In this document: one piece after another, positions 27,248 to 35,319 of the stretch
Numbering within the stretch: the first letter of the stretch is position 1
Layout of the letters: each line of letters starts with the position of its first letter
Assembly: GCF_003334385.1 (NCBI RefSeq)
Contig: NZ_QOWN01000004.1
Origin: Escherichia coli
GTDB taxonomy: Bacteria; Pseudomonadota; Gammaproteobacteria; Enterobacterales; Enterobacteriaceae
DNA length: 64,000 nt
Reading direction: 5' to 3' (one strand)
Notes under the pieces: generated by a model
Told to the model about the DNA's origin: nothing
Database searches by the model: none
The model's input: only the letters and a program-made list of their open reading frames with translations
Program-made: the position numbers and the translations under genes

Positions 27248-32799
<5,552 letters not shown>

Positions 32800-32801
32800 C
32801 A

Positions 32802-33143
32802 ATGCGAATATTTGTCTACGGCAGTTTACGCCACAAACAAGGCAACAGTCACTGGATGACCAATGCCCAGTTACTGGGCGATTTCAGTATCGATAACTAC
32901 CAGTTGTATAGCCTGGGCCACTATCCAGGCGCAGTTCCGGGGAACGGAACAGTACACGGTGAAGTTTATCGTATTGACAACGCCACGCTGGCCGAACTTG
33001 ATGCCTTGCGCACCAGGGGCGGTGAATACGCGCGCCAGTTGATTCAGACGCCGTACGGGAGTGCATGGATGTACGTTTATCAACGACCCGTCGATGGATT
33101 AAAGCTAATTGAAAGCGGCGACTGGTTAGACAGGGATAAGTAA
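32802..33143 (+). CDS. ytfP: Gamma-glutamylcyclotransferase-family protein YtfP
   Basis: 113 aa, MRIFVYGSLRHKQGNSHWM... Confidence 0.9.
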   Translation: MRIFVYGSLRHKQGNSHWMTNAQLLGDFSIDNYQLYSLGHYPGAVPGNGTVHGEVYRIDNATLAELDALRTRGGEYARQLIQTPYGSAWMYVYQRPVDGLKLIESGDWLDRDK

Positions 33144-33151
33144 TAATAAAA

Positions 33152-33182
33152 GCACGCCACCTTCGGGTGGCGTTGTTTTATG
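33152..33182 (+). terminator. Rho-independent terminator after ytfP (tamAB-ytfP operon)
   Basis: acgccacc-ttcg-ggtggcgt followed by tgtttta. Confidence 0.8.
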
Positions 33183-33467
33183 CGATGTATCTCGCGATTT
33201 TTTTTTGTAACTTTTCCATCTTTTGCTTTTCTCTCCGAGCCGCTTTCCATATCTGCAATCGCATAAAAAACTCTGCTGGCGTTCACAAATGTGCAGGGGT
33301 AAAACGGGGGCACGCTTTGAACGGTGAGTATGAGTGAGGTCGGCTAACTTCCAGCAAGTGGCTATGAACAGCAAAATGGTGGTCGGGTTTGCTTGTTCTT
33401 ACCGTTCAAGCCTTGCAACCGCTGAGAATAATGATGGTGGAATAGAGAGTTTATTTATCGCGGGCAT

Positions 33468-33510
33468 AAAAAAACCCTTACTAACCGAAGCCCGGCGTTC
33501 AGGGTTATTG
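33468..33510 (-). terminator. Rho-independent terminator of ppa
   Basis: On the minus strand: aaccctgaacgccgggcttcggttagtaagggttttttt, a stem plus T-run directly after the ppa stop. Confidence 0.7.
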
Positions 33511-33522
33511 CGCTAGAAGAAC

Positions 33523-34053
33523 TTATTTATTCTTTGCGCGCTCGAAGGAAGCAACGATTTCAGCTTTAGCGGCTTCTGCGTTTTCCCAACCTTCAACTTT
33601 CACCCACTTGCCTTTTTCGAGGTCTTTGTAGTGCTCGAAGAAGTGAGCGATCTGCGCTTTCAGCAGCTCTGGCAGATCGTTAACGTCTTTAATGTGATCG
33701 TATTCTTTGCTCAGCTTTGTGTGCGGAACAGCAATCAGTTTCGCATCTTCACCGGCTTCGTCGGTCATTTTCAGAACGCCAACCGGACGGCAACGGATCA
33801 CAGAACCCGGCTGCAGCGGGTACGGAGTCGGGACCAGTACGTCAACCGGGTCACCGTCCAGAGACAGGGTGTGGTTGATGTAACCGTAGTTGCACGGATA
33901 GAACATCGCGGTGGACATGAAGCGGTCAACGAACAGTGCGCCGCTCTCTTTGTCGATTTCGTATTTGATCGGATCTGCGTTAGCCGGGATCTCAATAACA
34001 ACGTAGATGTCTTCCGGCAGATCTTTACCCGCAGGGACGTTGAGTAAGCTCAT
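33523..34053 (-). CDS. ppa: Inorganic pyrophosphatase
   Basis: 176 aa, [38 protein letters not shown]... Confidence 0.97.
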
Positions 34054-34362
34054 GTCTGTTTCCTTTAAAAATATGTGGCAAACAAGTGCCGAGTATTATA
34101 GCCAACTCGCGCCGAATGTCTTCGCTTGTTTTCGTCTTCATTTTCCTTTTTCGCCAATTTTAAGACGGTATACAGAGCAGGAAAATCCATAACCGTAGCC
34201 GCATTTTTCATAGTGAGATGAAAGCGATTACAAACTTGTGATTAACGTTTTATTTACTTCTTTGAAGTGTGATGTAACGCAATCCGTTACATAACGAATT
34301 GTCTATAGTTTTTTCGCGAACATCTTTTCACCAATAATAATTACCCCGACGAGGACAACCCT

Positions 34363-35319
34363 ATGTGGAAACGCTTACTTGTAGTCTCTGCAGTCTCGGC
34401 AGCCATGTCGTCTATGGCGTTGGCCGCTCCATTAACCGTAGGATTTTCGCAGGTCGGATCGGAATCTGGCTGGCGCGCCGCAGAAACCAATGTGGCGAAA
34501 AGTGAGGCCGAAAAACGCGGAATTACGCTGAAAATTGCCGATGGTCAGCAAAAGCAGGAAAACCAGATTAAAGCGGTACGTTCCTTCGTCGCGCAAGGGG
34601 TGGATGCGATCTTTATCGCTCCGGTGGTTGCGACTGGTTGGGAACCGGTATTAAAAGAGGCGAAAGATGCCGAAATCCCGGTCTTCTTGCTCGATCGTTC
34701 TATTGATGTGAAAGACAAATCTCTCTATATGACCACCGTCACTGCCGACAACATTCTCGAAGGCAAGTTGATTGGTGACTGGCTGGTAAAAGAAGTGAAT
34801 GGCAAACCATGCAACGTGGTGGAGCTGCAGGGCACTGTTGGGGCCAGCGTCGCCATTGACCGTAAGAAAGGCTTTGCCGAAGCCATTAAGAATGCGCCAA
34901 ATATCAAAATTATCCGCTCGCAGTCAGGTGACTTCACCCGCAGTAAAGGCAAAGAAGTCATGGAGAGCTTTATCAAAGCGGAAAACAACGGCAAAAACAT
35001 CTGCATGGTTTACGCCCATAACGACGACATGGTGATTGGTGCAATTCAGGCAATTAAAGAAGCGGGCCTGAAACCAGGCAAAGATATTCTGACAGGTTCT
35101 ATCGACGGCGTACCGGATATCTACAAAGCGATGATTGATGGCGAAGCGAACGCCAGTGTTGAACTGACGCCGAATATGGCAGGTCCCGCCTTCGACGCGC
35201 TGGAGAAATACAAAAAAGACGGCACCATGCCTGAAAAGCTGACGCTGACCAAATCCACCCTTTATCTGCCTGATACCGCAAAAGAAGAGTTAGAGAAGAA
35301 GAAAAATATGGGGTATTGA
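34363..35319 (+). CDS. ytfQ: Galactofuranose ABC transporter periplasmic binding protein YtfQ
   Basis: 318 aa with signal peptide; LacI/periplasmic sugar-binding fold; first gene of ytfQRT-yjfF. Confidence 0.93.
   Translation: MWKRLLVVSAVSAAMSSMALAAPLTVGFSQVGSESGWRAAETNVAKSEAEKRGITLKIADGQQKQENQIKAVRSFVAQGVDAIFIAPVVATGWEPVLKEAKDAEIPVFLLDRSIDVKDKSLYMTTVTADNILEGKLIGDWLVKEVNGKPCNVVELQGTVGASVAIDRKKGFAEAIKNAPNIKIIRSQSGDFTRSKGKEVMESFIKAENNGKNICMVYAHNDDMVIGAIQAIKEAGLKPGKDILTGSIDGVPDIYKAMIDGEANASVELTPNMAGPAFDALEKYKKDGTMPEKLTLTKSTLYLPDTAKEELEKKKNMGY

Follow-up and report, generated by a model that had tools for sequence, protein, structure and literature searches.

In the Escherichia coli K-12 derivative MFDpir (locus L001, the source of all K-12 coordinates given below), the chromosomal toxin-antitoxin (TA) genes chpS and chpB (chpBI-chpBK; MazEF/PemIK) are found in the order ytfP-chpS-chpB-ppa, and the interval between ytfP and ppa measures 886 bp. 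Pastorello et al. (2013; PMC3735183) described three states of this locus in 47 genomes, with chpBS in 53%, esiB in 15% and neither in 32%, and short direct repeats with partial inverted symmetry around esiB. More broadly, a 2020 review (PMC7167474) cites Fiedoruk et al. (2015) and Mine et al. (2009) on how chromosomal TA systems of E. coli keep to conserved locations and how they decay.

We analyzed the same interval in a stretch of E. coli DNA of 64,000 nucleotides (referred to as the window), in which ORF calling gave the gene order tamB-ytfP-379-bp gap-ppa-ytfQ. A sequence-only reading of the window had given the K-12 order as ytfP-chpS-chpB-ppa, had put the interval here at ~380 bp and had taken it for an empty-site allele occupied by the terminators of ytfP and ppa. 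K-12 derivatives bear out this order and the length was measured as 379 bp, but the interval is very probably the old deletion relic of a resident chpS-chpB cassette, derived from a single event, and not a virgin site. The features on which this reading is based are the following.

29020-32799, + strand: tamB (ORF)
32802-33143, + strand: ytfP, gamma-glutamylcyclotransferase family, the left flank (113-aa ORF; RefSeq annotation under 100%-identical matches)
33144-33522: the ytfP-ppa gap, 379 bp
33153-33183, + strand: intrinsic terminator of ytfP, with hairpin 33154-33173 and a T-tract (terminator scan; fold of -24.5 kcal/mol, z -4.6)
33184-33306, + strand: remnant of the chpS-upstream leader of the cassette (86% identity to K-12)
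33307-33315: filler GGGGCACGC, 9 bp, at the 5' deletion junction (alignments)
33316-33440, + strand: chpB pseudogene fragment of 125 nt, codons ~7-48 (73% identity to K-12 chpB 2317-2443, tblastn, tree, folds)
33435-33458, + strand: 3' deletion junction with TGGTGG microhomology, followed by the last chpB codons, the stop codon and the downstream tail
33466-33508, - strand: intrinsic terminator of ppa, the right-hand core of the site, with a conserved match at ~33459-33510 (fold: stem AACCCU...AGGGUU plus U7)
33523-34053, - strand: ppa, inorganic diphosphatase, the right flank (176-aa ORF; RefSeq annotation under 100%-identical matches)
34363-35319, + strand: ytfQ (ORF)

The ORF list and tblastn revealed no intact ChpS or ChpB ORF in 33144-33522, and tblastn found no ChpS-like signal in the whole 64-kb window (best E 0.044, outside the gap and spurious). 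The promoter scan detected the ppa promoter alone and no promoter-like site in 33144-33522, while an Rfam scan of 32000-35000 at E≤1 gave no match; RefSeq annotates nothing at the relic locus. Thus none of the parts of a functional type II TA system of the ChpS/ChpB (MazEF-PemIK) type, being an intact toxin ORF (PemK/MazF fold, ~116 aa), an upstream antitoxin ORF (ChpS, AbrB/MazE-like, 83 aa) and an autoregulated promoter/operator, is present. The absence of the module, as claimed by the sequence-only reading, therefore stands as far as intact genes are concerned, both of which K-12 has. The statement that no PemK/MazF- or MazE-like protein is encoded likewise applies to intact ORFs and to ChpS, but not to the degenerate ChpB-like coding sequence at 33316-33440.

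Alignment of the gap with the K-12 interval, which had been proposed as a check on the empty site, returned three collinear cassette-derived pieces by blastn. Positions 33101-33306 match the end of ytfP and the region upstream of chpS (1800-2004, 86% identity), 33316-33440 match the inside of chpB (2317-2443, codons ~7-48; 72-73% identity, E 2e-14 in pairwise blastn), and 33435-33560 match the last chpB codons, the downstream tail and the end of ppa (2639-2766, 94.5% identity). The local alignment score of the chpB fragment was 78, compared with 18.3±2.3 (maximum 29) for 500 shuffled sequences and 18.4±2.5 (maximum 30) for 1,000 random segments of the window. On translation, tblastn matched amino acids 15-42 of ChpB (28 aa) to 33339-33422 with 50% identity (E 0.002); no other part of the 64-kb window gave a ChpB-like signal. 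ChpB-like coding sequence in the gap, which the sequence-only reading had itself named as evidence against its claim, is thus present in degenerate form, with frameshifts and in-frame stops relative to chpB. Together with the collinear homology at the orthologous site and the nesting with Escherichia chpB described below, this disrupted frame completes the picture of a relic. Indels vary among relic alleles (the CFT073 type has a 1-bp indel), and no ORF is conserved across them.

The two junctions differ in nature. On the 5' side, the leader remnant ends ~50 bp before the position of the K-12 chpS start, and the 9-bp filler stands in for 312 bp of K-12 (2005-2316) that hold the chpS promoter/operator, the entire chpS gene and the first 6 chpB codons; segment 2005-2053, which carries the palindrome GTTATACTTTGTATAAC and an SD sequence, is part of what is missing. 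Since the filler is of obscure origin, the exact 5' breakpoint is uncertain by several bases. On the 3' side, the missing 201 bp are in frame and lie between 6-bp TGGTGG direct repeats (K-12 2438-2443 and 2639-2644), which is the signature of replication slippage. A Chi site, GCTGGTGG, occurs in K-12 chpB at 2436-2443, where it overlaps the first of these repeats; the relic has ATGATGGTGG at this position and so lacks the Chi site.

To place the site in a wider context, we used a comparison set of 80 species-representative loci anchored on ytfP. The ytfP terminator is core sequence common to all Enterobacteriaceae loci examined, with 96-100% identity in ~70 loci of other genera, and the ppa terminator has matches of 83-92% adjoining ppa in loci of Citrobacter, Raoultella and Salmonella whose intervals are short or unrelated. 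Directly after the ytfP terminator the window has a second small hairpin with a T9 tract (33181-33205), which is terminator-like in the scan; K-12 differs here. In most genera, including Citrobacter, Salmonella diarizonae, Enterobacter, Klebsiella, Raoultella, Kluyvera, Trabulsiella and others, the ytfP-ppa interval is just 93-190 bp, and these short intervals, which may be ancestral or fully erased, match the window only at the ytfP terminator and, in some cases, at the ppa terminator as well. The ~275 bp between the terminators (33184-33458) were found only in loci with a chpSB cassette or its remnant. Specifically, the cassettes of Lelliottia and Enterobacter asburiae and a Citrobacter sedlakii relic have a leader that is 71-75% identical to that of the window, and the short-interval genera have none. 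A never-occupied site should contain only sequence common to its unoccupied relatives, and 33144-33522 contains more than that: the terminators account for about one-fifth of the gap, and the remainder is residue of the chpSB cassette.

The distribution of the two alleles was determined in 5,426 complete E. coli genomes with a 146-bp relic probe and a chpSB probe. The relic probe had matches in 5,423 genomes. At an identity of at least 80% it identified the relic allele in 2,325 of them (43%), 1,528 at 99% or more, and among the matches listed these were without an annotated feature. The intact type (3,098 genomes, 57%) matched the relic probe at ~72% identity, with chpB annotated among the matches listed. 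The chpSB probe hit 3,100 genomes and was matched over its full length in 3,098. Relic and intact sets were mutually exclusive, with three genomes in neither and a median of one place per genome. As the two sets together make up the whole collection, relic genomes do not carry chpSB elsewhere (at most 2-3 plasmid or odd cases). On this statistical ground, taken from genomes sharing the allele, chpSB has not been relocated in the strain of the window, of which 64 kb were covered. The allele of the window is present at 100% identity in C41(DE3), a BL21 derivative; K-12, O157:H7, E. coli C and ST131 bear chpSB.

Several genomes carry additional sequences at this site. esiB is present here in 188 of the 5,426 genomes (3.5%). 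In CFT073 it (1.47 kb) lies at the ytfP terminator, a 26-bp repeat (window 33156-33181) is duplicated on both of its sides (L002 4336-4371 and 5994-6027), and a complete chpB relic, ~93% identical to that of the window, follows downstream. In strain 100248 esiB is frameshifted and the relic is retained. FDAARGOS_1250 (NZ_CP069571.1, 477168-479196) has an IS1A within the ytfP-ppa stretch, which is otherwise 100% identical to the window there. In E. coli N50 (L085, 5577-41985 and 1073-5210) a ~36-kb P2-family prophage sits between ytfP and the relic, with its integrase adjoining the relic leader and Hok/Gef at the far end, so that the ytfP-ppa interval is also a phage attachment region; a beta-glucoside PTS/GH1/LicT operon takes the place of the equivalent of window 33379-33469 in this strain. 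Finally, HH45 (L004 2361-2626) has a 512-bp interval in which 101 bp identical to K-12 chpB and poly-G/C low-complexity filler are set in window-type flanks, and in which PGAP calls a PemK/MazF pseudogene. This composition most likely marks a chimeric or erroneous assembly, and we rejected HH45 as an evolutionary intermediate and left it out.

To trace the ancestry of the relic, we compared the window with L008, E. albertii NBRC 107761 (interval of 378 bp) and CFT073. L008 represents a second Escherichia lineage and not E. coli sensu stricto, since its tamB is just 92% identical to that of the window. Both junctions are base-for-base identical in all four. A neighbor-joining tree of the 125-nt chpB segment of these four relics and of intact chpB genes placed the relics in one monophyletic group on a long stem (200 of 200 bootstraps). 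This group joined Escherichia chpB, again in 200 of 200 bootstraps, and chpB from Enterobacter, Lelliottia, Kluyvera, Pseudocitrobacter and RIT691 stayed outside; none of these outside genes gave a significant match with the relic. The distance between relic and intact genes was p=0.27±0.04 (JC 0.33) over the 125 nt. Nearly all of it falls on the relic branch, because the intact Escherichia sequences are near-identical in this segment. Over the whole cassette, intact chpSB differs by 5-9% among Escherichia lineages (91-95% identity), in step with the flanking genes.

As a yardstick for the age of the loss, we used the four-fold sites of tamB, ytfP and ytfQ, taken to evolve at the neutral rate. 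Their divergence between the window and E. albertii is 0.34 (JC 0.45, or ~0.22 per lineage), and ~0.26 between the window and other Escherichia species. By this comparison the loss would be roughly as old as, or older than, the split between E. coli and E. albertii, with a wide error from a segment of 125 nt. The differences between the relic and chpB are clustered and some of them may be multi-nucleotide events, in which case the apparent age is inflated. Template switching at a quasi-palindrome as a source of these clusters was considered and is not favoured, as the inner stem is G-U rich and not perfected to Watson-Crick pairs.

These data bear on two other explanations of the interval. According to one, the site is truly empty: chpSB was at no time part of the interval, and its presence in K-12-type strains goes back to an insertion. 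The patchy distribution of the cassette would agree with this, as would the 93-190-bp intervals with only the two terminators in most other Enterobacteriaceae genera, which indicate that chpSB probably was once an insertion at the family level. However, the interval of the window contains ~275 bp of cassette homology, including 125 nt of chpB in the correct order and orientation, and an insertion cannot leave its own frameshifted fragment in an unoccupied allele. For the allele of the window the empty site is thereby refuted, and overall we regard it as very improbable. The question of whether chpB is an ancestral core module or a later insertion, which the sequence-only reading had raised, consequently has two answers: this particular allele reflects secondary loss of a resident chpSB, and at the family level most other genera do have a genuinely short interval. 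According to the other explanation, the window shows a recent strain-specific deletion or an assembly artefact. HH45 does demonstrate that a chimeric-looking version with poly-G/C filler can appear at this locus. Nevertheless, we attach next to no probability to this explanation: the relic allele is present in 2,325 complete genomes including C41(DE3), with 99% identity or more in 1,528 independent ones, it recurs in E. albertii and in another Escherichia lineage, and a recent event could not account for its 27% divergence from chpB.

The relic alleles are more similar to each other than the flanking genes would predict. Divergence between relics is 0.04 for the window and L008 and 0.12-0.17 for E. 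coli relics and E. albertii, and these between-species values (0.04-0.17) are 2-6 times below those of the tamB/ytfQ four-fold sites (0.26-0.34). Such slow divergence requires that the ytfP-ppa block has been introgressed or that the relic is under some constraint. Four-fold divergence between the window and E. albertii (L010) is 0.13 for both ytfP and ppa, as opposed to 0.35 for the 3' part of tamB and 0.40 for ytfQ. This suggests that the ytfP-ppa block is younger than its surroundings, due to inter-species recombination around the polymorphic site, with a possible contribution of codon bias in the case of ppa.

Recombination also seems to have occurred inside the interval, since the leader is a mosaic that does not follow the split into relic and intact alleles. 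The leader of the window is 96.7% identical to that of the chpSB-bearing L006, and the leader of L008 is 95% identical to that of the chpSB-bearing L009; across Escherichia alleles the identity of the leader (33184-33306) is 80-97%, versus 95-99.7% for ytfP and ppa. As its haplotypes cut across relic/intact status, the leader was unusable as a tracer of allele history. Both alleles are also found within what we take to be phylogroup A (K-12 versus the BL21-derived C41(DE3)) and phylogroup B2 (ST131 versus CFT073). The simplest reading of these patterns is that the alleles have been exchanged by homologous recombination, probably also between species, with breakpoints that would lie inside the interval.

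A further property of the relic is its potential to form RNA structure. On the + strand, the window fragment 33312-33416 is predicted to fold as a long hairpin (-41.1 kcal/mol, z -4.2); the hairpin itself, 33316-33412, lies within the chpB fragment. The equivalent part of K-12 chpB (2313-2419, codons ~6-41) folds with -45.9 kcal/mol (z -4.2). In five lineages with intact Escherichia chpB, the mRNA has a predicted hairpin from codon 7 of -46 to -50 kcal/mol. Enterobacter chpB is without the hairpin (z +1.3), and the fold of Pseudocitrobacter chpB is weak and of a different kind (z -1.5). Among the other relics, z was -3.8 for L008, -3.2 for CFT073 and -1.6 for E. albertii. To our knowledge, a hairpin in the chpB mRNA has not been described. 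In the intact mRNA, the predicted structure could modulate toxin translation or mRNA processing.

This raises the alternative that the chpB fragment has been kept for its hairpin, newly used as an RNA or DNA structure, and that the relic/intact polymorphism is not neutral. The hairpin might, for example, insulate the convergent transcripts of ytfP and ppa from each other, or act as a stabiliser or processing element. Its strength in intact Escherichia chpB and in most relics despite 27% divergence would be in line with such a use, as would its greater stability on the + strand, its G-U richness, the position of the 5' junction exactly at the hairpin base and the slower between-species divergence of the relic compared with four-fold sites. 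In addition, when decay of the K-12 hairpin was simulated, the stability of the relic was reached in only 1.75% of the runs with random positions, but this fraction was 17% with the observed positions, which means that the replacement bases at the changed positions are no better than random (P=0.17). Moreover, the fold of the E. albertii relic is at the null mean of the simulation (P=0.5, z -1.6), and RNAalifold found only an inherited, shared 13-bp basal stem, with one double-sided change. The interval has no promoter and no Rfam match, the hairpin is located between two terminators and no U-tract follows it. The slow divergence, finally, extends to the four-fold sites of ytfP (0.13), and this favours introgression of the block as a whole over constraint on the relic. 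On balance, a new use of the hairpin, including the uses named as examples, appears improbable, and we regard the hairpin as having been inherited from Escherichia chpB and as having partly survived. A further reading takes intact and relic alleles as a long-lived, trans-species balanced polymorphism in which TA 'addiction' would hinder the recombinational replacement of chpSB by the relic and a cost of chpSB would prevent its fixation, and/or has the surviving chpB piece kept for a function of its hairpin, which in the intact mRNA possibly sets the toxin:antitoxin translation ratio. We consider this reading unlikely.

The deletion relic that we favor probably arose as follows. One deletion would have removed the 312 bp from the chpS promoter/operator through chpS to the sixth chpB codon. 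Another would have removed the 201 bp of chpB (~codons 48-114) in frame between the TGGTGG repeats. Left over between the convergent terminators are the leader, a promoterless stretch of chpB codons 7-48 that later acquired frameshifts and stops, and the chpB tail. If the in-frame slippage deletion, or another mutation that inactivated the toxin, came first, subsequent loss of the antitoxin would have been harmless; this order is purely inferred. The loss would have happened once, at about the time when the Escherichia species diverged, and the relic and intact alleles would have co-existed since, with homologous recombination reshuffling them both inside and across Escherichia lineages. The relic itself most likely has no function.

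Outside Escherichia, intact chpSB occupies the same position in Lelliottia, E. asburiae, Kluyvera genomosp. 1, two Pseudocitrobacter species and RIT691, with ChpB at 64-78% amino acid identity. Two further relics were found. The 341-bp interval of C. sedlakii (L031 4340-4686) retains the leader together with a fragment from the 3' part of chpB (69% over 138 nt versus K-12, E 1e-10). In Enterobacter cloacae DSM 26481 (L033 ~6050-6165), a fragment of the chpS promoter and 5' end adjoins ppa (71-76% over ~105-120 nt) and sits behind 1.7 kb of unrelated ORFs. Both relics have different breakpoints and are independent of the Escherichia relic. From these comparisons chpSB is a long-standing and repeatedly eroded resident of the ytfP-ppa site in several genera.

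The same gap also receives other genes. Unrelated cargo lies between ytfP (ending at 4339) and ppa in loci L011, L017, L045 and L035. Citrobacter gillenii and relatives have a TonB-dependent receptor and YncE at the ytfP-ppa site, and Salmonella arizonae has an Hcp(TssD)-fusion protein with a close homolog, by sequence, in C. youngae. In Enterobacter soli a methyl-accepting chemotaxis protein is found, with a close homolog by sequence in Pluralibacter, and in Lelliottia sp. WAP21 a type A chloramphenicol acetyltransferase plus a 655-aa ORF. The gap between the convergent terminators is a general hot spot for small insertions.

Compared with K-12 chpS-chpB, the relic occupies the same site on the same strand, and the leader, the tail and 125 nt of chpB are homologous. 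It differs in being a dead remnant without chpS, the promoter/operator, the chpB start codon and the C-terminal two-thirds of the toxin, and what is known of how ChpBK and ChpBI work is unaffected by it. Its bearing is on the scoring of strains. Those like BL21/C41(DE3) usually count as empty or chpSB-negative at this locus, and the relic indicates that absence of chpSB in Escherichia would be an old secondary loss and not a failed acquisition. The fixed junctions make it simple to tell the two haplotypes apart by PCR or from sequence, and the near-even 57:43 split offers a natural system in which to test whether a chromosomal TA module resists allelic replacement.

The site and its classes are the same as those of Pastorello et al. 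(2013; PMC3735183), with 57% chpSB and 43% relic here and esiB in 3.5% of all 5,426 genomes; the direct repeats that flank esiB in their account correspond to the ytfP terminator. The presence/absence polymorphism is thus already published. In the available part of that account, the 'neither' class and the esiB strains simply lack chpBS and a chpB fragment is not mentioned. In the literature on chpB at this locus we found no description of a remnant, which may be mentioned in primary papers on chromosomal TA systems, and the relic nature of the 'neither' class appears to be undescribed.

The relic is an ordinary case of chromosomal TA decay. By analogy, and as far as the review (PMC7167474) conveys the earlier work, the decay of chpSB fits the view that chromosomal TA systems drift and decay. 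It is most similar to the decay of chromosomal ccdO157 (Mine et al. 2009, as cited in PMC7167474), in which a TA system at a fixed intergenic site is either intact or eroded by deletions and nonsense mutations. Unlike ccdO157, it concerns another TA family and another locus, and one old haplotype with fixed junctions that extends across Escherichia species and makes up ~43% of E. coli genomes, not many independent inactivations of recent date. With the Citrobacter and Enterobacter relics added, chpSB would be a second clear example, after ccdO157, of a long-resident and repeatedly eroded chromosomal TA system.
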